DNA from: a virus
Lineage: Duplodnaviria; Heunggongvirae; Uroviricota; Caudoviricetes
IMG/VR virus record: IMGVR_UViG_2531839130_000013
DNA length: 45,266 nt
Strand: one strand, 5' to 3'
Positions 1,419 to 13,965 of the stretch are shown here, piece by piece (the stretch's first letter is position 1; each line of letters begins with the position of its first letter). The translations under genes were made by a program, and so were the position numbers. The notes under the pieces were generated by a model. That model worked only from the letters and a program-made list of their open reading frames with translations, did not search any database and was not told where the DNA came from.

Positions 1419-3890
1419 TTAAAAATCAGCCTGACTCGGGATCAGTTTTTGCCAGATAGCTGAAACGTATTTTGCCTGGTAACGAGCGTCATCAAGTGCA
1501 TTATGGCGCTCACCTTCGAATGGGATAGCAGTTCTGGCATCGAAGTCTATGGCTTTCCCCAGCTCAACGATTGTGCGTACATCGCGATCGTTGTAGTAAC
1601 GCCACGGGCAGGGGATCCCCTGCCGCTCGTATGAACGGCGCAAAATAGTGTTGTCGAAGTTGGCTCCATTTCCCCAGACCTGAACAAAAAATTCACCGGA
1701 GTTTTCGTCGATAAATTCCCGCAATTGTAACAGTGCATCATCTAACGGGATTTCATCGGTCATAATGGCAGATTGCGCTTCGCGTGATTGTTTAAGCCAC
1801 CATTTAATGGTGTCCCGATCAATGACTCCGCCAGCAGTTTCCAGATCGATAGTCTTACTAAATTCCGGTCCCATATCTCCGGTTTGCGGATCGAAAAATA
1901 TTGCACCTATTGAGATAATCGGGGCATCGGGATTTTTTCCCATGGTTTCAAGGTCGATCATCAGATGAATCCCCGCTCTGCTGGTGGATGTGAGATTATG
2001 ATGACCGTTCGCCTTAATTAAGGGATCTGACGCCTCGCCAGTTTCACTATCGCTGGCATGATGCTGATTGCCGCCAGTGTTCTCCTTGTGCTGATGCGCA
2101 GTGCCTTCCATTTCCTCCGGATCATTTTCCTGAACTTCAGGCTGATTCTCTCCATCGAATATTTCCTGGTATGTTGCGTCACCCATCACCGCACCACAAT
2201 CAGGGCAGTTGCCGCCACCGCTCTGACCGCAGGCGGTGCAGATCTTTTCCGGTTCCTGTTGCACTACTGGTTCAGGTTGTTTCGTTTCTGGCTCGTTTTG
2301 TTGCGTATTTTGGCTGTTTTGTTCCGCTTTCTGGTCGTTCTGTTCCGTTTCTTGCTGGTTCTGGTTCGCAGAATCGCGGGTCTGGATCCCCTTAACCCAT
2401 TTCGGATCATTCGGGTCGCTAATCCCTTCAACAAATTCACCACGTGATACTGCAAGCAGTTCATCGGCGTCAGGCTGGCTGATATTGGCTGCCTGCATAA
2501 TTTTGTTTACTTCGTCAGCGGTAACTTTTACCGGTTCTGGCTGTGCGGTCGTGTCAGATGCACCAGTATTTTGTTGTGAACCTGAGTATGTACTGTTTTT
2601 GCGGGCGAAATATTCTTCTTTCGTGATTTCAGTAGCCCCGGCAGCCAGCGCCTTATCCAGACCAGAAAGTTTGTTTGCGCGACCGTATTTTTCGCCATCC
2701 TTGTCGGTGAAGAGGAAGTAGAACGGCCCCTCACGCTCTACAGATGGTTCGACTTCCACTTTGCATTCGGTTTTTTCGTTGTCCGGAATTGCCGTTTCCA
2801 CTGCATCAGTTTCTGGTACTGGCGACGAGAGAGTATCAGTTGCGCTCTGATTTGTTCCTTCATCTTCAAACACGCCCTTTGTAGTCAGGTATTCAGTAAT
2901 GTATTTGTTCAGTGCCACAGGATCTTTGTGAATGTCGATCGGACGTCCACGGACAAGGCCAAAAATAGTCTGGCGGTCGTAGCGAAGGGCATCAGGCTGT
3001 TTGCGCATCGATGCCGAGATACGCTTCCAGTCTTCGCGGTCGTTGTCGATAACTTCATTTTTTGCCCAGCGATGGATGCTGCCGTCAATGTTTCCGGCAT
3101 CCACATCACCAGGCCAGAGAGCGTAGGCCAGTTCGTCATCCAGTGTTTTCCATGTCTGCTTGTATTCGCGATGAATGACTGCAGTGACAGGGGAGATATT
3201 TTCTGCTGAGTTTTCAGTGTGCTGTCGGTTGACTCTGGCGCGGGCGAGATCAACAGCAGACGTGTATTTTCCGGTTTCCTTGCGTTCACCTTCGCGACGT
3301 TTTTTCCAGATGCGCATCTCTGCCTGAATTTCGGGCCATTTAGCTCCAGGCTTACATTTATGCTTAACCCACCCGATGGCATGCAACTTAAGTTCTGGAT
3401 ACATGGCGTTAACTTCTGGCATTTTCATCAACGCTTCAACGATATGTCCGTCGAATGTTGCCATGTCTTCCTGCAACAATTCCTGCGCGCTAATCACCAT
3501 ATCAACGGTGATGTTTTCACATGTGTCGAACTTAACCATGACAGCGTTCTGTACTTCAGGGGCCAGCTTGTCAAAAGTGACGTTCATCGGATCTGATTCA
3601 GTCTCAACCGGGACAAAGGAAGCAGACTCCTCATCCCAGCGGTTTTCCTGCATATATTCAGCATCCCAGGAATCGAGGGCAGGGCGGGGTATACCGGGTT
3701 TATCCTCGCAAACAAGAAATTTATAAGCGCAGTCCTGAGCAGCCGGATAATGCTCCAGGAATTGCCAGTGAAATTTTGCGCGGGCGCGACGTTCATCACC
3801 GGCTTCAATGGCAGTGGCTACAGCGACTGCACCTTCTTCCTTTATTGCCTGTTCGTCCGGAATGGCGGCGCAAATAAAGACTTTACTCAT
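1419..3890 (-). CDS. Large exonuclease-like protein with C-terminal DnaQ-like (DEDDh) 3'-5' exonuclease domain
   Basis: 823-aa ORF. C-terminal third has exonuclease motifs (IDLET..., HNALDDARY); central part is acidic and Q/N/E-rich with a Cys4 cluster (CTACGQSGGGNCPDCG). Sits where lambdoid recombination genes lie. Confidence 0.6.
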   Translation of the reverse strand: MSKVFICAAIPDEQAIKEEGAVAVATAIEAGDERRARAKFHWQFLEHYPAAQDCAYKFLVCEDKPGIPRPALDSWDAEYMQENRWDEESASFVPVETESDPMNVTFDKLAPEVQNAVMVKFDTCENITVDMVISAQELLQEDMATFDGHIVEALMKMPEVNAMYPELKLHAIGWVKHKCKPGAKWPEIQAEMRIWKKRREGERKETGKYTSAVDLARARVNRQHTENSAENISPVTAVIHREYKQTWKTLDDELAYALWPGDVDAGNIDGSIHRWAKNEVIDNDREDWKRISASMRKQPDALRYDRQTIFGLVRGRPIDIHKDPVALNKYITEYLTTKGVFEDEGTNQSATDTLSSPVPETDAVETAIPDNEKTECKVEVEPSVEREGPFYFLFTDKDGEKYGRANKLSGLDKALAAGATEITKEEYFARKNSTYSGSQQNTGASDTTAQPEPVKVTADEVNKIMQAANISQPDADELLAVSRGEFVEGISDPNDPKWVKGIQTRDSANQNQQETEQNDQKAEQNSQNTQQNEPETKQPEPVVQQEPEKICTACGQSGGGNCPDCGAVMGDATYQEIFDGENQPEVQENDPEEMEGTAHQHKENTGGNQHHASDSETGEASDPLIKANGHHNLTSTSRAGIHLMIDLETMGKNPDAPIISIGAIFFDPQTGDMGPEFSKTIDLETAGGVIDRDTIKWWLKQSREAQSAIMTDEIPLDDALLQLREFIDENSGEFFVQVWGNGANFDNTILRRSYERQGIPCPWRYYNDRDVRTIVELGKAIDFDARTAIPFEGERHNALDDARYQAKYVSAIWQKLIPSQADF

Positions 3891-5142: not shown

Positions 5143-5506
5143 TCGAAATCTCATGGCTAACTGTAACACTCCCGTCTGTGGCGGGATGCTTTAAATCACA
5201 GGAGTTAACGCTTTTTGTTGCAAAGTAATTTTCAAGGGGGTCTATTCGAATCCCTTTCTTTTTCATTAACAAGCCAAACCCCTTATCAATGATGTCCATT
5301 AGATCCAGGAAGTATTTTTTATGTAAATCCTGGTTATCAGAGAGCTGCTTCTCTTCGTACAGACCGATAAAGGCACGACGCACGTTACCGGATATAGTAT
5401 AGATGGTTTCTTTTTCTACGGTACTCAGGTCAAGAGTCGCCAGTTGGGAACGAACTATATTCGCTGCCATTTCCTGGAATTGCATTGGTAAATCTTTAAA
5501 TTCCAT
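5132..5506 (-). CDS. Hypothetical protein (124 aa)
   Basis: Clean ORF tightly packed in the leftward early operon; no recognisable motif. Confidence 0.5.
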   Translation of the reverse strand: MEFKDLPMQFQEMAANIVRSQLATLDLSTVEKETIYTISGNVRRAFIGLYEEKQLSDNQDLHKKYFLDLMDIIDKGFGLLMKKKGIRIDPLENYFATKSVNSCDLKHPATDGSVTVSHEISINH

Positions 5507-5528
5507 TATTAGCCTCGTTGGTTAGCTA

Positions 5529-5747
5529 TTAACGTGGGTATGTAATCATTCTGGCAATGCTTAATGCCGCTGCTTTTTCCAGCCTGGTGATATCCTGCTC
5601 CAGAGCGGACAGATTTTCAGCCTGCTTAGCCCTGGCTTCATTGGCCCATTTCAGATCCTGCGCTGCATTAATTTTCTGGCGCATCCACTCATAAAGTTCA
5701 TCATCGGTATAGTCTTGTGCGATGATGACGGGTTCTCGTTTCTGCAT
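5529..5747 (-). CDS. Hypothetical protein (72 aa)
   Basis: ORF in the leftward operon, predicted coiled-coil-like composition. Confidence 0.45.
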   Translation of the reverse strand: MQKREPVIIAQDYTDDELYEWMRQKINAAQDLKWANEARAKQAENLSALEQDITRLEKAAALSIARMITYPR

Positions 5748-5775
5748 ACTGATTCCTCGCGGTGCTGTTTCGCTT

Positions 5776-5904
5776 ATCAGCCGTTAGATTTTGCGGAACT
5801 GGAAAGCGCCTGTTTAAATTCGTTGAAGCTGAGAGCTTCTTCGCCTTCGGCAAGACCTTCGAAGTATTCTTCGTAAGCCTTTTCCATGATTGTGTCGAAA
5901 TCCA
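5776..5904 (-). CDS. Hypothetical small acidic protein (42 aa)
   Basis: Hand-translated minus-strand ORF MDFDTIMEKAYEEYFEGLAEGEEALSFNEFKQALSSSAKSNG with SD-like GGTGAGTG upstream; fits the gap between neighbours. Below the size cut-off of the ORF track. Confidence 0.35.
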
Positions 5905-5906
5905 TA

Positions 5907-6143
5907 TCACTCACCTGAGTTTCTTTCCAGCCAGCGACGGGCACCATTTTCGGTTTTAAACGTTTTGCTTTTGGTATACGTCATCGCGGTGAACGTACCG
6001 TCCTGGTTGGGGAACACGCCACATACCAGAGATTCGCTGTTGCCAAGATCGATAGTATCCATGCTGACCTCATTTCCCCTTAACGCCGGGGTAGCGGAAC
6101 AAAAACCTGCTGCATAGTTATTAAAGTTGAACCCTGCCGTCAT
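5907..6143 (-). CDS. Hypothetical protein (78 aa), first gene of the leftward early operon
   Basis: ORF directly downstream of the candidate pL-type promoter; start may be at an internal Met. Confidence 0.45.
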   Translation of the reverse strand: MTAGFNFNNYAAGFCSATPALRGNEVSMDTIDLGNSESLVCGVFPNQDGTFTAMTYTKSKTFKTENGARRWLERNSGE

Positions 6144-6241
6144 GTTCTTACGCCTCGGGCTGGCTACTTAACCCCTGACCACTGCCTGGTAACTCGAAGT
6201 ATTGCCCTGCATTATGTGGGGCGGGGTGGGTTGATATTTTT

Positions 6242-6269
6242 AGTTTAATAAACATTAAACTTAAGTCAA
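6242..6269 (-). promoter_or_regulatory. Candidate leftward early promoter (pL-like): -35 TTGACT, 16-bp spacer, -10 TAAACT on the minus strand
   Basis: Minus-strand hexamers are identical to those of the candidate rightward promoter at 7257-7286; ACTAAAC-like operator motifs nearby (6254-6260, 6276-6282). Confidence 0.4.
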
Positions 6270-6353
6270 GTAAAAACTAAACCGCAGGGCGTAACAAACA
6301 CAACGCTTTTGATAAAGTCGTTGCGGTTGTTATGTTTCTATTGGTAGTGAAAG

Positions 6354-6632
6354 TTAGGGAAACTGGCGTCTTGCGTGGATCACGTTTACTACTTCAACGC
6401 TTGATGTTGTTACGCGGTATAGAATTATATAGTTAGGGTGGGCTACAATCTCACGCAAGCCAGGTACTCTGTCGCTTGGTGGGTATAAATACGGATGTTC
6501 GGATAACGGCAGCACACAACCCCTTAATCGCTGCCATAAGCGTTCAGCCGCATCTATGTCGAAACGAGCAATATAACTAGTTATATCATCTAGGTCGGTA
6601 TCTGCGCTTTCAAGCCATAACACGGGTAACAT
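6354..6632 (-). CDS. parE: ParE/RelE-family type II toxin (about 92 aa)
   Basis: C-terminal region REIVAHPNYIILYRV...VEVVNVIHARRQFP is typical of the ParE/RelE fold; start placed at internal Met (MLPVLWLE...) abutting the antitoxin stop. Sizes (92 aa toxin, 63 aa antitoxin, upstream repressor) match the three-component PaaR-PaaA-ParE prophage modules of E. coli O157 as I recall them. Confidence 0.75.
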   Translation of the reverse strand: MLPVLWLESADTDLDDITSYIARFDIDAAERLWQRLRGCVLPLSEHPYLYPPSDRVPGLREIVAHPNYIILYRVTTSSVEVVNVIHARRQFP

Positions 6633-6633
6633 T

Positions 6634-6825
6634 TTACTGCTTGCTCCGTTCCTTGCGCATTTTAGCAAAGCGTTCTGCCATTCTGCGCTCAACTTCGTCA
6701 TGGGGAATTGCTGGGCGTGGATCTGCAAGGCTCGTTGCTACTTTTGCACGCAGCCATTCGTTGTAACTGTTTTCTTGTTCAATGGTTTCAAATTCAGAAA
6801 CCATTGGTGAAAGGGCTCTATTCAT
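6634..6825 (-). CDS. Antitoxin partner of the ParE-like toxin (63 aa, PaaA-like)
   Basis: Start MNRALSPMVSEF... preceded by GGAGGA SD; small acidic/basic protein immediately upstream of the toxin with near-adjacent stop/start. Confidence 0.6.
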   Translation of the reverse strand: MNRALSPMVSEFETIEQENSYNEWLRAKVATSLADPRPAIPHDEVERRMAERFAKMRKERSKQ

Positions 6826-6845
6826 GTTTCCTCCGGTTTTATAAC

Positions 6846-7217
6846 TCAGGCGCGGCGGCATTTTTGCGCCGCAATCCATCTCGCTATGAGATCTTCCATT
6901 GATTCTTTTTTCTGCTTTAACTCGCTGATTATCTGGCGTTGCTCATCCTCAGGGAAGGCTGAAAAAATCTGCAATAATTCCAGTTGATTAGACGTTAACC
7001 CTGCATGTGGTGGAGAAACCTCCGGTTGTTCTGCGTATTCCGCATCCAGATACCCTTCCGGCATCCCGTATGTTTGCTCTATTCTTCTGGCAGCCTTTTC
7101 TCCAAACGAGGCTCTCCCACTCATTAGTTGAGATAGGTAGCTCTTCTCTTTGGGTGGCAGAGTTTTATCTTTAAACCACTCCTTGAGACGTAAACGGCGA
7201 ATTTCTTTTTTTTGCAT
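6846..7217 (-). CDS. Phage repressor-like HTH regulator (cI/DicA/PaaR-like), probably leaderless
   Basis: HTH-like segment KSYLSQLMSGRASFGEKAARRIEQTYGMPEGYLD; C-terminal LELLQIFSAFPEDEQ resembles the DicA C-terminus. Start set at MQKK (7217) because the longer 158-aa reading runs through the divergent promoter and the cro-like start; a GATAAT -10 sits 6 nt upstream of this ATG. Confidence 0.7.
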   Translation of the reverse strand: MQKKEIRRLRLKEWFKDKTLPPKEKSYLSQLMSGRASFGEKAARRIEQTYGMPEGYLDAEYAEQPEVSPPHAGLTSNQLELLQIFSAFPEDEQRQIISELKQKKESMEDLIARWIAAQKCRRA

Positions 7218-7223
7218 GTGGTA

Positions 7224-7305
7224 ATTATCTTTAGTAATCACTAAACAAGCAAATACTTGACTTAATGGTTTATTAAACACTAAACTCTCAAAAAAAACAC
7301 TAAAC
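7224..7305. promoter_or_regulatory. Divergent promoter/operator region: leftward pRM-like promoter, rightward pR-like promoter, three CACTAAAC repeats
   Basis: Leftward -10 GATAAT (7224-7229 on +) and -35 TTGCTT (7247-7252) with 17-bp spacer; rightward -35 TTGACT 7257-7262, 18-bp spacer, -10 TAAACT 7281-7286; direct repeats CACTAAAC at 7239-7246, 7278-7285, 7298-7305. Confidence 0.45.
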
Positions 7306-7315
7306 CGAGGAAGGT

Positions 7316-7618
7316 ATGACATTAAAAGAGTTTATTAAATCATTGAGGGTTGGTGATGCTAAGAAATTCGCAGCCAGACTTGGTGTATCGCCATCTTACT
7401 TATCGCAAATGGCGTCTGGACGAGCAGCTATATCTCCAACACGCGCCCTTATGATCGAATCTGCGACGGAAGGCCAAGTAAGTAGGGCGGAGCTACGACC
7501 CCATGATTGGGAGCTTATTTGGCCTGAGTATGCGAGCGGCATTCGTTTGGGGCAAACACATGTAGTTCATGCTGAAGGTGATTGTAGTGCATGCTTATCT
7601 GATGGAGTTGATTCATGA
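7316..7618 (+). CDS. Cro-like HTH protein (YdaS-like)
   Basis: 100-aa ORF divergent from the repressor, GAGGAAGG SD; HTH-like FAARLGVSPSYLSQMASGRAAISPTRAL; position equivalent to cro. Confidence 0.65.
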   Translation: MTLKEFIKSLRVGDAKKFAARLGVSPSYLSQMASGRAAISPTRALMIESATEGQVSRAELRPHDWELIWPEYASGIRLGQTHVVHAEGDCSACLSDGVDS

Positions 7619-8040
7619 AAATCAAGCATGAACACATCCGCATGGCGATGAATGCCTGGGCGCATCCGGACGGTGAAAAAGTTCCGGCTGCGAAAATTAC
7701 CAAAGCGTATTTCGAGCTGGGAATGACGTTCCCGGAACTGTATAACGACAGCCATCCGGAAGCCCTGGCTCGCAATACTCAGAAAATTTTCCGCTGGGTG
7801 GAGAAAGACACCCCTGATGCGGTTAAAAAAATTCAGGCGTTGTTACCAGCTATCGAAAAAGCAATGCCGCCTCTGCTGGTGGCCCGAATGCGCAGCCACA
7901 GTTCAGCCTGGTTTCGGGAGCTGGTGGAGACGCGGGAACGGCTGGTGAGAGACGCTGATGATTTTGTCGCAGTGGCGATCGCTGGTTTCAACCAGATGAA
8001 TCGTGGTGGCCCTGCAGGAAATATTGTGGCTGTGCATTGA
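7615..8040 (+). CDS. YdaT-like protein (cII-position regulator / putative toxin family)
   Basis: 141-aa ORF starting MKIKHEHI..., overlapping the stop of the Cro-like gene; synteny and N-terminus resemble Rac prophage YdaT as I recall it. Confidence 0.5.
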   Translation: MKIKHEHIRMAMNAWAHPDGEKVPAAKITKAYFELGMTFPELYNDSHPEALARNTQKIFRWVEKDTPDAVKKIQALLPAIEKAMPPLLVARMRSHSSAWFRELVETRERLVRDADDFVAVAIAGFNQMNRGGPAGNIVAVH

Positions 8041-8105
8041 CTCGCAATATTCATACCGGATCACTTCCGGCAATTTGTGAGTAAAAAGATTCGGTATCAA
8101 AAGAG

Positions 8106-9152
8106 GTGAGTATGGCTAACGCCTGGCTCAGATTATGGCATGACATGCCAAACGATCCTAAGTGGCGAACAATTTCCAGGTTGTCAGGACAGCCAATCGC
8201 AACAGTGATGGCTGTGTATATCCACCTTCTGGTGAGTGCGTCACGAAATGTCACGACATGTCACGGTGTGTCACTACGTGGTCACATTGATGTCACGGCG
8301 GAAGATTTAGCAAGTGCGCTTGATGTGACGGAAGAAGTAATTGATTCAATTTTACAGGCAATGCAGGGGCGGGTACTTGATGGAGATTTGATCAGTGGAT
8401 GGGAAAAACGCCAGGTACTGAAAGAGGACAATGGCAACGTTTCACAAACCGCGAAATCCCCGGCAGAGCGCAAGAGAGCGCAGCGCGAGAGGGAAAAATT
8501 ACGAAAACAGAATGAGGGGGCGCGCGACGAGTCACGCATCTGTCACGACATGTCACGACGAGTCACGACAGATAAAGATACAGATAAAGAATTAAACCCC
8601 ACACATAACGCGCGCGTGCGAGAGAGTGCTCCTGCCAGTGAGGCAAATGGCGTGCCGTTGCAAACAGCGGAACCTGATTACCTGGAAGGCCTGAGCGAAC
8701 CCATCGGGAAATTTCCGATGACCGATGGCTGGCATCCGTCGCCGGATTTTCGACGACGGGCTGCGCTGTGGGGCGTGGCTCTTCCTGAGCCGGAATTTAC
8801 ACCAGCTGAACTTTCCGCCTTCCGGGACTACTGGGCAGCGGAGGGCAAAGTGTTCACGCAGGTTCAGTGGGAGCAGAAATTCGCCCGTCACGTAAATCAC
8901 GTCAGGGCGCAGGCTAAACCAGTCAGCAAGGGGGTAAACCATGCAGCAGCACCAGGTGGCACCGCATCACGGGCAGTTCAGGAAATTCGGGCAGCACGTG
9001 AGCAGTGGGAACGTGAAAACGGATTTATCAGCGACGGAAACGGCCTGGAAGCTGTGGGAACTCATGGGGGAGGTTTATTCGAACCGCTGGACCCAGAAGA
9101 ACGGGGCCGCACCTTCGAAGCTCTGGATTGCACAGATTGGCGCGATGACTGA
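8106..9152 (+). CDS. Replication initiation protein (O-like; YdaU/DUF1376-type N-terminus)
   Basis: 348-aa ORF with N-terminal WLRLWHDMPNDPKWRTI motif; two clusters of TGTCACG iterons lie inside the coding sequence, as the lambda ori lies inside O; immediately followed by a P-like gene. Confidence 0.65.
   Translation: MSMANAWLRLWHDMPNDPKWRTISRLSGQPIATVMAVYIHLLVSASRNVTTCHGVSLRGHIDVTAEDLASALDVTEEVIDSILQAMQGRVLDGDLISGWEKRQVLKEDNGNVSQTAKSPAERKRAQREREKLRKQNEGARDESRICHDMSRRVTTDKDTDKELNPTHNARVRESAPASEANGVPLQTAEPDYLEGLSEPIGKFPMTDGWHPSPDFRRRAALWGVALPEPEFTPAELSAFRDYWAAEGKVFTQVQWEQKFARHVNHVRAQAKPVSKGVNHAAAPGGTASRAVQEIRAAREQWERENGFISDGNGLEAVGTHGGGLFEPLDPEERGRTFEALDCTDWRDD
8239..8298. repeat. Iteron cluster 1: about six copies of (T)GTCACG at roughly 10-bp spacing
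   Basis: gcgTCACGaaaTGTCACGacaTGTCACGgtgTGTCACtacgtgGTCACattgaTGTCACG read directly from the sequence. Confidence 0.6.
8527..8564. repeat. Iteron cluster 2: four copies of GTCACG(A) followed by an A/T-rich tract (8565-8595)
   Basis: GAGTCACGcatcTGTCACGacaTGTCACGacgaGTCACGacag then gataaagatacagataaagaattaaa; iterons plus AT-rich region are ori-like. Confidence 0.55.
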
Positions 9153-9606
9153 GCAGCAAATCCGACAGGTCTGCCGCCAGTGCATGGACCGCTGCCGGGC
9201 GGGTGAAACATGGCCTCCGGACCTGGCTGAGTTTGTGGCACTGATTTCGGAGAGTGGGGCAAATCCATTTGGTCTGACGGTGGATGCTGTGATGGAGGAG
9301 TACCGTCGCTGGCGCAATGAGTCCTGGCGATACGACGGAAGCGATAAATACCCATGGACTCAGCCTGTGCTGTATCACATTTGCCTCGAGATGCGTTCAA
9401 AGGGGATTGAGCGCCAGATGACCGAAGGGGAATTAAAACGGCTTGCAGAACGGCAGCTGACGAAATGGGCAAAGCATGTTAGTAACGGCCTGAGCGTTCC
9501 GCCAGTCCGGCGACAACTGGCGGCACCCAAACGCCCGTCGGGACCAACGCCAATTGAGTTACTGAAACAGGAATATGAACGCCGGAAAGCGGCTGGGTTT
9601 GTTTGA
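8941..9606 (+). CDS. Replication protein P-like helicase loader
   Basis: C-terminal two-thirds align by eye with lambda P ([14 protein letters not shown] / [27 protein letters not shown]...[11 protein letters not shown] / YPWKSNAHYWLVTNLY...AELRRKAADEL). 5' end overlaps the initiator gene; true start may be the Met at 9064. Confidence 0.6.
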
Positions 9607-10402: not shown

Positions 10403-10834
10403 TTGCCGGAGGCACCTGTGGCAAAAGTATTTACACCAGAAGAGCGGGAAAAAATTAAAGGGCAGGTTATTGAACTCGTGCGCCAGAGTGGGCGCGAGAC
10501 GTTACGGCAACTGGAAGCTAAAACAGGGGCGACAAGATACCTGATGAGCGTTCTCGCCAGAGAGCTGGTTGCCAGTGGTGATGTATACAACTCTGGCTAC
10601 GGGTTATTCCCGTCTGAACAGGCTCGTAAGGACTGGATAAAGGCCCGCAAAAAGATGTCGAAAGCAGCAGTGAAAAAAAAGAGCGACCCGGACTTGGTTT
10701 ATTCATTACCAGACGGAGAAATACGTCGTTACAACAGACGACAGAACATAATCTGTCGCGAGTGCCGGAAGAGTGAGGTTATGCAGCGAGTGCTGGCGTT
10801 TTATCAGGGGAATTTTGAGGAGGAGGTACTGTGA
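10403..10834 (+). CDS. Hypothetical protein (143 aa)
   Basis: ORF abutting the previous stop; contains a CxxC pair near the C-terminus (CRECRKSE); no family recognised. Confidence 0.4.
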   Translation: MPEAPVAKVFTPEEREKIKGQVIELVRQSGRETLRQLEAKTGATRYLMSVLARELVASGDVYNSGYGLFPSEQARKDWIKARKKMSKAAVKKKSDPDLVYSLPDGEIRRYNRRQNIICRECRKSEVMQRVLAFYQGNFEEEVL

Positions 10835-11395: not shown

Positions 11396-12082
11396 ATGAC
11401 CACAATAAATACGTTTATGACAGTTGCTGATTTCAAACGGCCTAAATTGGAGCTCCCAAACGGGGCAAACAAACTACTACTGCACTCTTGCTGTGCTCCA
11501 TGTTCCGGTGAAGTGATGGAGGCGCTTCAGGCCTCGGGAATCGACTACACCATCTTTTTCTACAACCCGAACATTCATCCTCAGAAAGAGTATTTAATTC
11601 GTAAGGATGAGAATATTCGCTTTGCTGAACAACACGGCGTGCAGTTTATCGATGCTGATTACGACACAGACAACTGGTTTGAACGTGCCAAAGGAATGGA
11701 ATGGGAGCCCGAGAGGGGGATCCGTTGTACCATGTGTTTTGACATGCGTTTTGAGCGGACAGCGTTGTACGCTGCTGAAAATGGTTTCAGTGTGATCAGC
11801 AGTTCGCTGGGCATTTCACGCTGGAAAAATATGCAGCAGGTTAACGACTGTGGGCGGCGAGCCGTCGCGCATTATCCGGGAATGGTGTACTGGGATTATA
11901 ACTGGCGCAAGCAGGGCGGCTCGTCCCGTATGATTGAAATCAGCAAGCGCGAAAAATTCTATCAGCAGGAATATTGTGGCTGTGTGTATTCTCTGCGCGA
12001 TACCAATCTACACCGCAAATCTCAGGGACGCCCTCTTATCAAAATTGGTCAACTCCACTACGGTAAAGAAGAGAAGGAGTGA
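11396..12082 (+). CDS. queH: QueH-like protein (DUF208, epoxyqueuosine reductase family)
   Basis: N-terminal [11 protein letters not shown] motif plus downstream conserved Cys (CTMCFD, YCGCV) match the signature of QueH/DUF208 as I recall it; stand-alone gene between replication genes and the hok locus. Confidence 0.6.
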
Positions 12083-12915: not shown

Positions 12916-13965
12916 GTGCGGGTATTACTTCGACCTGTTCTGGTGCCGGAACTTGGGGTGGTTATCGTTAAGCCAGGTCGTGAATCCATGCAGGTATTCC
13001 ATAACGGCAGAGTGCTGGTTGAACCGGAGCCAAAAAGCATGCGCGGTCTGCCGTCCGGGGTCGTTCCTGCCGTTCGCCAGCCGCTGGCGGAAGACAAATC
13101 TCTGCTGCCATTTTTCAGCGATGAGCGGGTGATTCGTGCTGCCGGCGGCGCTGGTGCACTGTCTGACTGGCTCCTGCGTCATGTTAAATCCTGCCAGTGG
13201 CCTCATGGTGACTACCATCACAGTGAAACCGTCATACATCGTTACGGTACCGGCGCGATGGTGCTGTGCTGGCACTGCGACAACCAGCTGCGTGACCAGA
13301 CATCCGAATCACTCGGGCAACTTGCTCATCAAAACCTGTCAGCATGGATGATTGACGTCATACGCCATGCAGTGAATGGCACGCAGGAGCGGGAATTATC
13401 GCTGGCTGAATTATCCTGGTGGGCGGTCCGCAATCAGGTGGCGGACGCGCTTCCGGAGGCAGTATTACGTCGTTCTCTGGGGTTACGTGCGGAAAAAATC
13501 CGCTCTGTGTACCGTGAAAGCGACATCATACCGGGAGAGCAGACAGCCACCAGCATACTGAAGCAGCGCACAAAAAATATTGTGCTACCGCCTCACGCCC
13601 ACCAGCAACAGAACCCACCACAGGAAAAGACGGTGGTCAGCATTGCCGTTGATCCGGAGTCTCCTGAATCTTTCATGAAGCGACCTAAACGTCGCCGCTG
13701 GGTTAACGAAAAGTACACGCGCTGGGTTAAGACACAGCCGTGTGCATGTTGTGGTAAGCCAGCCGACGATCCCCATCACCTGATTGGTCACGGTCAGGGA
13801 GGGATGGGGACAAAAGCCCACGATATTTTCACGCTACCGCTGTGCCGGGAGCATCACAATGAACTTCATGCTGATCCGCTGGCATTTGAAGAAAAGCATG
13901 GTTCCCAGATTGATTTAATTTTTCGTTTTCTTGATCACGCCTTTGCAACCGGCGTGCTCGGGTAA
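12916..13965 (+). CDS. DUF968-family protein with C-terminal HNH-like Cys/His motif (YdfU-like)
   Basis: GTG start with GGAGG SD; C-terminus CACCGKPADDPHHLIGHGQGGMGTKAHDIFTLPLCREHHNELH is HNH-like; 349 aa like Qin YdfU. Confidence 0.55.
   Translation: MRVLLRPVLVPELGVVIVKPGRESMQVFHNGRVLVEPEPKSMRGLPSGVVPAVRQPLAEDKSLLPFFSDERVIRAAGGAGALSDWLLRHVKSCQWPHGDYHHSETVIHRYGTGAMVLCWHCDNQLRDQTSESLGQLAHQNLSAWMIDVIRHAVNGTQERELSLAELSWWAVRNQVADALPEAVLRRSLGLRAEKIRSVYRESDIIPGEQTATSILKQRTKNIVLPPHAHQQQNPPQEKTVVSIAVDPESPESFMKRPKRRRWVNEKYTRWVKTQPCACCGKPADDPHHLIGHGQGGMGTKAHDIFTLPLCREHHNELHADPLAFEEKHGSQIDLIFRFLDHAFATGVLG

Follow-up and report, generated by a model that had tools for sequence, protein, structure and literature searches.

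The paaR2-paaA2-parE2/ydaS-ydaT locus of the window (the whole 45 kb stretch of DNA analysed here) is, judging from its sequence, very probably (probability about 0.93) the immunity region, or lysis/lysogeny switch, of a lambdoid prophage of the CP-933P (Sp12) type. The same switch was characterised in CP-933P of E. coli O157:H7 EDL933, which corresponds to Sp12 of Sakai, by Jurenas et al. (2021, mBio; PMC8630535), using 5' RACE, N-terminal sequencing, mass spectrometry, EMSA and DNase I footprints, together with gfp fusions for PRM, PR, PL and PRE and a dual-reporter analysis of bistability. That 2021 study already reported these promoters, a repressor mRNA without a leader, operators common to OR and OL, and the bistability. 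The first-pass annotation, which reported most of these features, was therefore correct, and what it described is known and ordinary; it has little weight as a discovery, and its worth lies in a bare-sequence reading having recovered the correct architecture. The experiments on the O157:H7 copy established where transcription starts, that translation is leaderless, which sites are footprinted, and that there is repression, activation and bistability; the same behaviour is predicted for the allele in the window because the two sequences are nearly identical.

Identity of the locus

Strain PV15-279 (locus L002) served as the O157:H7 reference and as a proxy for EDL933. All 15 of the tested EDL933-designed primers from PMC8630535 match this reference exactly, and 10 of the same set match the window exactly, among them the PL and PRE cloning primers (two for each promoter). 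The region contains the Pfam families PaaA2, ParE, YdaS and YdaT, and the gene order and content of the immunity region equal those of CP-933P. Protein identity to O157:H7 is high for PaaR2 (121/123), PaaA2 (63/63), ParE2 (92/92) and YdaS (99/100), and lower for YdaT (118/141). The immunity-region sequence is kept in 593 of 5426 complete E. coli genomes, and phage Evi, deposited as a phage genome, carries a 98%-identical immunity region. We found nothing that contradicts a CP-933P-type switch. Since this immunity type is common in E. coli and occurs in prophages that look intact, it could serve as a natural model for studying how a CI analogue that cannot be cleaved, and that is coupled to a ParE toxin, gets switched off.

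Early promoters and the ydaS-ydaT genes

The rightward promoter PR lies at 7257-7286 on the plus strand (-35 TTGACT at 7257-7262, -10 TAAACT at 7281-7286), and the leftward, PL933P-type promoter PL at 6242-6269 on the minus strand (-35 TTGACT at 6269-6264, -10 TAAACT at 6247-6242). Both are identical to their O157:H7 counterparts, and a consensus promoter scan lists each of them independently. The first-pass annotation had described them as matched promoters with the same hexamers, which the sequence bears out; the match needs one refinement, as the spacers are unequal, with 18 nt in PR and 16 nt in PL. The likeness extends beyond the hexamers, with a 12-nt perfect inverted match, TACTTGACTTAA (6261-6272 and 7254-7265), and a shared 24-nt inverted arm at 79% identity. 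In O157:H7, 5' RACE agrees with the predicted PR933P, and PL933P, with the same -35 and -10 as PR933P, is repressed by both PaaR2 and YdaS (PMC8630535). The PL of the window lies between the published PL933P-gfp primers, both of which are exact in the window and delimit a fragment at 6236-6353.

Downstream of PR, ydaS (7316-7618, plus strand), the Cro analogue, encodes a protein of 100 aa with the Pfam families YdaS_toxin/HTH_3 and is preceded by a Shine-Dalgarno sequence, GAGGAAGG, at 7307-7314. It is followed by ydaT (7615-8040, plus strand), the CII analogue, whose 141-aa product belongs to Pfam YdaT_toxin and to phrog_163 (CII-like activator) and is 84% identical to the studied O157:H7 protein. 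The YdaT recognition site TTGATT-N6-AATCAA has been footprinted (Prolic-Kalinsek et al. 2023, PMC9986795), and its sole match in the window is the high-affinity operator OM, TTGATTCATGAAAATCAA, at 7608-7625, at the ydaS/ydaT junction. The fragment equivalent to PRE933P occupies 7524-7643 on the minus strand, bounded by the published PRE-gfp primers, both of which are exact in the window; PRE933P is a leftward promoter activated by YdaT (PMC8630535).

The repressor and its probable leaderless transcript

The repressor gene paaR2 (6846-7217, minus strand) encodes a CI analogue of 123 aa that begins MQKKE and is identical to the O157:H7 protein over residues 1-65, the differences between the two proteins being two linker substitutions. 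PaaR2 matches PDB 7NKV/8C3K (E = 1.3e-39 over residues 1-71) and phrog_5736, annotated as a transcriptional regulator; a search of the available literature for a paper describing PDB 7NKV/8C3K/8C3L found none. A comparison of the protein with Pfam at E <= 0.01 gave no family, and an S24 peptidase domain is absent; the O157:H7 repressor was likewise reported to lack a peptidase motif and to be unresponsive to mitomycin C (PMC8630535). PaaR2 works like CI but is not a member of the lambda CI/LexA-type cleavable repressors, which combine an HTH with Peptidase_S24.

The promoter PRM is located at 7224-7252 on the minus strand (-35 TTGCTT at 7252-7247, 17-nt spacer, -10 GATAAT at 7229-7224) and is identical to that of O157:H7. 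Its -35 agrees with the consensus at just 3 of 6 bases, which is why PRM is missing from the output of the consensus promoter scan. Six nucleotides, TACCAC, separate the -10 from the repressor ATG at 7217, which places the expected start of transcription at the A of that ATG, and the sequence upstream of the ATG contains no Shine-Dalgarno. The promoter geometry, on which the first-pass annotation had based its proposal of a leaderless mRNA like that of lambda cI, was verified in the sequence. For the O157:H7 copy the proposal agrees with experiment: the 5' RACE start of PRM933P is the paaR2 start codon, the purified protein begins MQKKE, its intact mass matched, and the paaR2 mRNA from PRM933P was described as leaderless, like lambda cI (PMC8630535). 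MQKKE is also where the chains deposited in the PDB for the N-terminal domain of PaaR2 begin. For this allele, a leaderless paaR2 mRNA is predicted from the promoter geometry, the absent Shine-Dalgarno, an upstream frame that is not conserved and the near-identity to the O157:H7 copy.

Operators

The 8-mer CACTAAAC occurs three times in the window, always on the plus strand (at 7239, 7278 and 7298) and always in the right control region, within 67 bp. The whole-window count is not significant, with 1.04 copies expected and 11 of 100 shuffles reaching three. For this reason the raw count gave way to a clustering test and a palindrome scan. The clustering is significant, three copies within 70 bp being found in 0 of 2000 dinucleotide shuffles. 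Outside these copies, ACTAAAC appears in the window only at 6276-6282, in the left control region, and a 14-nt direct-repeat family has five copies, two in OL and three in OR. When all 18-bp palindromes of the window were scored against the published half-site consensus GTTTAGTAA, four of the five best sites in the 45 kb fell in OR and OL (7229-7246, 7268-7285, 6243-6260 and 6265-6282); a stray palindrome at 10697-10714 ties for third with both OL sites.

The best of these palindromes, with 2 mismatches to the consensus, is IR1, CTTTAGTAATCACTAAAC (7229-7246), which lies over the spacer of PRM and the adjoining edge of the -10 and carries CACTAAAC at 7239-7246. The second best is IR3, GTTTATTAAACACTAAAC (7268-7285), over the PR spacer and -10, with CACTAAAC at 7278-7285; as direct repeats, IR1 and IR3 are spaced by 39 bp. 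Between them lies a degenerate IR2 at about 7249-7266, over the PR -35 and adjoining the PRM -35, in which only the right half resembles a half-site; its register is approximate, having been placed from this 39-bp spacing and the "four equally spaced" repeats of PMC8630535. IR4 (7288-7305) covers the start of PR transcription and the ydaS leader, and only its right half, ACACTAAAC (7297-7305), is conserved. On the left, GTTTAATAAACATTAAAC (6243-6260), a member of the direct-repeat family, covers the PL spacer and -10, and GTCAAGTAAAAACTAAAC (6265-6282), which contains ACTAAAC, covers the PL -35 and the sequence upstream of it.

In O157:H7, PaaR2 and YdaS footprint overlapping repeats that cover PRM and PR, although PMC8630535 leaves open whether the contacts follow the inverted or the direct repeats and what their precise sequences are. 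By sequence comparison, CACTAAAC is the right half of the published 18-bp inverted repeats, not a whole operator, and a description of the operators as 18-bp imperfect inverted repeats that overlap direct repeats is preferable to one as an 8-mer. The first-pass annotation had proposed this 8-mer, present three times on the right and in degenerate form on the left, as a shared-operator motif; the three copies and the left ACTAAAC stand, whereas the motif is only half of an operator and its count alone is not significant. The underlying idea of operators shared by the two control regions agrees with the repression of PL933P and the PRM/PR footprints reported for PaaR2 and YdaS, and would extend to this allele. 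We infer that individual repeats may play lambda-like OR1/OR2/OR3 roles.

The allele in the window differs little from O157:H7 in its control regions. The intergenic region between the divergent paaR2 and ydaS measures 98 bp (7218-7315), compared with about 97 bp in the CP-933P type. The two sequences agree at every base from the paaR2 ATG to the end of the PR -10, and beyond it there are one substitution and one extra A, both confined to IR4 and the PR start: a T for G at 7288, and A8 for A7 at 7290-7297. The A8 run, also found in E. coli E2855, puts the last half-site one base further off, at 20 instead of 19 bp, and the A7/A8 length could tune the switch in this way. PL and OL are identical to O157:H7 except for position 6282, which is C here and T in O157:H7.

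The repressor operon

Behind paaR2, on the same strand and separated by gaps of 20 and 1 nt, lie paaA2 (6634-6825, minus strand; 63 aa; Pfam PaaA2, E = 9.7e-20), encoding an antitoxin, and parE2 (6354-6632, minus strand; 92 aa; Pfam ParE_toxin, E = 2e-16), encoding a ParE-family toxin. Both products are identical to those of O157:H7. The module does lie between the two control regions, as had been proposed, but the emphasis belongs on its co-transcription with the repressor as a paaR2-paaA2-parE2 operon. The only Pfam model that PaaA2 matches is the toxin-binding PaaA2 model, of 33 residues; the antitoxin was reported to lack a DNA-binding motif, control of the operon lying with PaaR2, YdaS and YdaT (PMC8630535). 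The arrangement is thus distinct from a canonical two-gene type II toxin-antitoxin (TA) operon, in which the antitoxin binds DNA and autoregulates.

A hairpin just after the parE2 stop (6292-6332, minus strand; fold of 6262-6362, -22.1 kcal/mol, z = -3.8) is a possible end of the paaR2-paaA2-parE2 transcript. The hairpin is non-canonical, and the scan flagged no canonical intrinsic terminator between parE2 and PL.

Proposed working of the switch

In the model that we favour, PaaR2 would be the functional equivalent of lambda CI, made leftward from the weak PRM on an mRNA without a leader that starts at its ATG and would run on into paaA2-parE2, at the position of lambda rexAB. PR would drive ydaS and ydaT, and PL, 1 kb to the left, the early-left genes. 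PaaR2 and YdaS would compete for repeats about 20 bp apart, with IR1 on PRM, IR2 and IR3 on the PR -35 and -10, IR4 on the PR start, and two comparable sites on PL. At low levels, PaaR2 would turn PR and PL off and stimulate PRM, and at high levels it would turn PRM off too; YdaS would favour the PRM side, and the outcome would be a bistable switch. YdaT, bound at 7608-7625, would turn on a leftward PRE-like promoter feeding paaR2.

Alternative explanations

The hexamers and the repeated 8-mer could in principle be chance features of AT-rich intergenic DNA, with the real promoters elsewhere. The non-significant raw count of CACTAAAC would fit such an explanation, as would the number of promoter-like sites in the 4-kb region, which only slightly exceeds that of the shuffles (9 vs 6.0). 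Its probability is nonetheless negligible: TTGACT-N15-19-TAAACT occurs exactly twice in the 45 kb, where 0.02 occurrences are expected and none of 100 shuffles contains as many, the 8-mer clusters as it never does in shuffled sequence, the region is conserved in the E. coli genomes cited above, and the 5' RACE and gfp-fusion results published for identical promoter sequences refute it (PMC8630535). It is also very improbable that the repressor is made in a longer, leadered form from a promoter further right. The ORF listing does show a 158-aa frame (6846-7322) starting from an ATG at 7322, but it is the extra A that keeps this frame open, and in the window only; a stop lies 27 codons upstream of MQKKE in both O157:H7 and phage Evi. 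Such an extension would cross the operators and overlap with the start of ydaS, the RefSeq annotation has the 123-aa form, and the N-terminal sequence and intact mass (PMC8630535), like the PDB chains, point to a protein beginning MQKKE. The 158-aa ORF was therefore rejected as the true repressor.

Alternatively, paaR2-paaA2-parE2 might be a plain three-component TA operon autoregulated by PaaR2, next to which the likeness of the flanking promoters would have nothing to do with immunity. The locus was originally described in such terms (Hallez et al. 2010, as summarised in PMC8630535), PaaA2 and ParE2 are genuine TA proteins, and the locus stabilises plasmids. As the sole explanation, this is improbable and largely refuted by the repression of PR933P and PL933P by PaaR2: the repressor acts mainly on PR (ydaS-ydaT) and also on PL, and YdaS and YdaT in turn regulate the operon (PMC8630535), which occupies the cI-rexAB position of lambda between the PL and PR of a lambdoid prophage. 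The two views are compatible, with a TA pair embedded in the CP-933P-type switch.

Comparison with known systems

The closest known system is CP-933P, which shares with the window an identical DNA-binding domain of PaaR2 and identical PaaA2 and ParE2 proteins, and in which PRM, PR, PL, IR1-IR3 and the YdaT OM site are the same base for base. The flanking PL-operon and replication genes differ, and CP-933P is cryptic, whereas the prophage surrounding the switch in the window looks complete.

Lambda shares the logic of the region, with divergent PRM and PR within about 100 bp, a weak PRM, a leaderless repressor mRNA, a repressor and a Cro analogue that compete for the same repeats, a further set of operators at PL some 1 kb away, accessory genes co-transcribed with the repressor, and a CII analogue that activates a leftward promoter at the cro/cII junction. 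There is, however, no detectable sequence relationship. Unlike lambda CI, the PaaR2 of the window (123 aa) has neither a Pfam match nor an S24 peptidase domain; four repeats about 20 bp apart with mixed direct and inverted symmetry take the place of three 17-bp operators, the PR and PL hexamers are identical, and rexAB gives way to a TA pair. YdaT, a tetramer of the POU type, does not have the CII fold (PMC9986795).

The Rac (RacR/YdaS/YdaT) and Qin (DicA/DicC) prophages of E. coli K-12 resemble the region described here in that their repressor is a short HTH protein that lacks a cleavage domain and is encoded divergently from a YdaS/Cro-like gene, with YdaT next, in cryptic lambdoid contexts. 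Identity to the CP-933P proteins is only 26% for the YdaS and 31% for the YdaT of Rac (PMC8630535), and Rac has no TA pair behind the repressor.

Host prophage and induction

The surrounding lambdoid prophage encodes an integrase, an exonuclease, O/P-like replication genes, and lysis, terminase, portal, head and tail genes, and is apparently complete. Without an S24 peptidase domain, PaaR2 would not undergo RecA-mediated cleavage, and without a LexA-like cleavage domain the induction step of a lambda-like switch would be missing or different. We tentatively consider it possible, though rather unlikely, that the switch controls a real lysis-lysogeny decision in a complete prophage with a RecA-uncleavable repressor and another route of induction. 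Candidates for such a route are an antirepressor, a flip of the bistable switch that is either stochastic or tied to stationary phase, or a signal of another kind. The window was also searched for LexA boxes as a link to the SOS response: it contains no exact box (CTGT-N8-ACAG), and a relaxed search returned four sites, only one of which, at 15866-15885, is box-like and may be a candidate lead on the induction route.

Identity of the immunity region

The locus is the paaR2-paaA2-parE2 / ydaS-ydaT immunity region as found in CP-933P (Sp12), the cryptic prophage of E. coli O157:H7. Pfam profiles identified the PaaA2 antitoxin (6634-6825, minus strand), the ParE toxin (6354-6632, minus), a YdaS-type HTH protein (7316-7618, plus) and YdaT (7615-8040, plus). 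No Pfam family was found for the 123-aa repressor PaaR2 (6846-7217, minus); it matches PDB 7NKV/8C3K ('Phage repressor protein CI') from its first residue, with E = 1.3e-39. As the O157:H7 reference we used the locus of strain PV15-279. All 15 tested EDL933-designed primers of Table S3 of Jurenas et al. match this reference exactly, EDL933 being the sequence material of that study (Jurenas et al. 2021, mBio 12:e02947-21, PMC8630535). In the window, 10 of the 15 are exact, and exact primers delimit the PL933P-gfp fragment (6236-6353) and the PRE933P-gfp fragment (7524-7643).

PaaA2 (63/63) and ParE2 (92/92) are identical to their O157:H7 counterparts, YdaS matches at 99 of 100 residues and YdaT at 118 of 141, while PaaR2 shares 121 of 123 residues, with residues 1-65 identical and both changes in the linker. 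The alignment revealed no differences from the start codon of paaR2 up to and including the -10 hexamer of the rightward promoter PR. The right control region (OR) departs from O157:H7 only by a G-to-T change at 7288 and an extra A in the run at 7290-7297 (A8 versus A7), and the left control region (OL) is identical over 6236-6281, with one change at 6282. The A8 form is shared with E. coli E2855; in phage Evi, a G interrupts a run of equal length. The extra A places the half-site of inverted repeat IR4 20 bp after that of IR3 rather than 19. At the sequence level, the locus has every feature of a CP-933P-type immunity region, a known arrangement for which the experiments that the first-pass annotation had proposed have already been carried out.

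Escherichia phage Evi (LR597642.1, 3164-4967) carries the same PL / parE2-paaA2-paaR2 / ydaS-ydaT region at ~98% identity; as this is a deposited phage genome, cryptic prophages are not the only carriers of the immunity type. The DNA of parE2 is present in Evi and its annotation is missing. Of 5426 complete E. coli genomes, 593 contain the OR segment.

Matched promoters and shared operators

PR (TTGACT 7257-7262, 18-nt spacer, TAAACT 7281-7286, plus strand) and the leftward promoter PL (TTGACT 6269-6264, 16-nt spacer, TAAACT 6247-6242, minus) were each picked up independently by a consensus promoter scan. The first-pass annotation had described identical hexamers at these positions, and the sequence of 5400-8400 bears out both the identity and the coordinates. 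The pattern TTGACT-N15-19-TAAACT occurs twice in the 45,266-base window, against a shuffle mean of 0.02, and none of 100 shuffles reached two. The likeness does not stop at the hexamers: TACTTGACTTAA, a 12-mer, recurs inverted and without mismatch at 6261-6272 and 7254-7265, and over a 24-nt arm the complementarity is 79%. In both promoters, the last base of the promoter-proximal palindrome is the fifth of the -10 hexamer, and the two-base difference in spacer length falls between the -35 hexamer and the palindrome. In EDL933, PL933P shares its -35 and -10 with PR933P and is repressed ~100-fold by PaaR2 and by YdaS (PMC8630535).

The motif CACTAAAC, noticed earlier as a triple repeat in the right control region, indeed has three copies in the window, all on the plus strand (7239, 7278 and 7298). 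The total is unremarkable (1.04 expected; three reached in 11 of 100 shuffles), but the clustering is not, with three copies within 70 bp in none of 2000 dinucleotide-preserving shuffles. Elsewhere in the window, ACTAAAC occurs only once, within the left control region (6276-6282). In EDL933, OR contains four equally spaced 18-bp inverted repeats with half-site consensus GTTTAGTAA, IR1 lying over the repressor promoter PRM and IR3 over PR, while IR2 and IR4 are conserved in one half only; overlapping pseudo-symmetric 'operators' OR1-3 were also reported (PMC8630535). When all 18-bp windows across the 45 kb were scored against this half-site, four of the five top-scoring sites fell in the control regions: IR1 (7229-7246, CTTTAGTAATCACTAAAC) over the PRM spacer and the edge of its -10, IR3 (7268-7285, GTTTATTAAACACTAAAC) over the PR spacer and -10, and two OL sites, one (6243-6260, GTTTAATAAACATTAAAC) over the PL spacer and -10 and the other (6265-6282, GTCAAGTAAAAACTAAAC) over the PL -35 and upstream. 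The fifth, at 10697-10714, has four mismatches, ties with both OL sites and is probably a chance match. By its place in these palindromes, CACTAAAC forms the right-hand, conserved half of IR1, IR3 and IR4. There is also a 14-nt family of direct repeats, A-TAA--ACTAAAC, with five plus-strand copies at spacings of 22 bp (OL) and of 39 and 20 bp (OR), which fits the remark of Jurenas et al. that both kinds of symmetry, direct and inverted, are conserved (PMC8630535). In EMSA and DNase I footprints on the 97-bp intergenic region, PaaR2 covers ~78 bp and YdaS ~65 bp, each spanning both promoters (PMC8630535). The promoter and operator observation is confirmed, and the interpretation first placed on it is supported.

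On the minus strand, the parE2 stop is followed immediately by a stable hairpin (6292-6332), a short way upstream of the PL -35; folding 6262-6362 gave -22.1 kcal/mol, with z = -3.8. With its U-run placed ~10 nt beyond it, within an OL site, the hairpin does not qualify as a canonical terminator; it may terminate the repressor operon or insulate it.

The repressor promoter and its probably leaderless transcript

PRM reads, on the minus strand, TTGCTT (7252-7247), 17 nt, GATAAT (7229-7224), TACCAC and the paaR2 ATG at 7217, so that six bases separate the -10 from the start codon, as originally noted. Its -35 matches only three of six consensus bases, which explains its absence from the consensus scan list, and no Shine-Dalgarno sequence was found ahead of the ATG in the window sequence. 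As far as sequence can tell, these features fit PRM as described in the literature, which is weak, leaderless and stimulated by PaaR2. In EDL933, the starts mapped by 5' RACE fit both predicted promoters, PRM933P and PR933P; that of PRM933P falls on the paaR2 start codon, and the purified protein, whose mass is as expected, has MQKKE at its N-terminus (PMC8630535). The EDL933 paaR2 mRNA is on these grounds leaderless, like that of lambda cI, as the first reading of the sequence had proposed for the window.

The window's ORF list includes a 158-aa paaR2 frame from an ATG at 7322. We rejected this start: the frame is open only in the window, owing to the extra A in the 7290-7297 run, and in O157:H7 and phage Evi a stop lies 27 codons before MQKKE. 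The RefSeq annotation gives the 123-aa protein. At 7218-7229 (minus), a YdaT-activated transcript from PRE would meet the paaR2 ATG without a recognisable Shine-Dalgarno sequence (...AAAGATAATTACCAC ATG); the lambda PRE transcript supplies one for cI.

A probable lambda-like switch

A lambda-like bistable switch is the best-supported mechanism for the locus. In CP-933P, PaaR2 at low levels stimulates PRM while repressing PR, YdaT switches on a PRE-like promoter, and a dual reporter revealed bistability (PMC8630535); by virtue of sequence identity, the same mechanism would operate in the window. PaaR2 bound to the PR-side repeats and OL would shut off early transcription both rightward (ydaS-ydaT, replication) and leftward while aiding its own weak promoter, and surplus PaaR2 would occupy IR1 and turn PRM off. 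YdaS would prefer the PRM side, and YdaT, acting at PRE, would supply paaR2. Footprinting placed YdaT on TTGATT-N6-AATCAA, where ydaS and ydaT meet (Prolic-Kalinsek et al. 2023, PMC9986795), and the sole exact match in the window lies at 7608-7625. Single repeats may take OR1/2/3-like roles, and a PaaR2 octamer might loop OR to OL, as suggested by analogy only in PMC8630535. The toxin-antitoxin pair, carried on the repressor transcript, would serve as an addiction module for the immunity region. For CP-933P, these steps have been demonstrated, apart from the roles of single repeats and the looping.

The switch works like that of lambda, but PaaR2 lies outside the CI/LexA family, as no S24 peptidase domain was found in it (Pfam), and a lack of response to mitomycin C was reported for CP-933P (PMC8630535). 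Nor is the operon a canonical toxin-antitoxin operon of two genes, since its antitoxin lacks a DNA-binding domain.

Prophage surroundings

The window appears to hold a complete lambdoid prophage, with a lambda-type integrase (1-1119), a RecE-like exonuclease (1419-3890), O-like and P-like replication genes (8112-9606), an endolysin (about 18.7 kb), a terminase (21.1-23.5 kb), and portal, protease, major head, tape measure, J and tail fibre genes. The nin-like region carries a gene for a QueH-like protein (epoxyqueuosine reductase, 11396-12082), followed by a DUF968/HNH gene (12916-13965) and an N6 DNA methylase ORF (15858-16907); tRNA-Met(cat) (16957-17032) and tRNA-Arg(tct) (17130-17206) lie ahead of the lysis genes.

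No exact LexA box (CTGT-N8-ACAG) occurs anywhere in the window. A box-like site, TACTGTAAAAATATCCAGTT at 15866-15885, has two mismatches to TACTGT-N8-ACAGTA and is found 8 nt into the N6 DNA methylase ORF; it could be relevant to SOS sensing by a prophage with a non-cleavable repressor. Within the O-like/DnaT-domain replication gene (8112-9152), iteron-like GTCACG-type units with 10-bp spacing (8240-8279) stand beside two copies of TTGATGTSACGG (8287-8304 and 8320-8337), and the repeats at 8240-8337 are probably the prophage replication origin.
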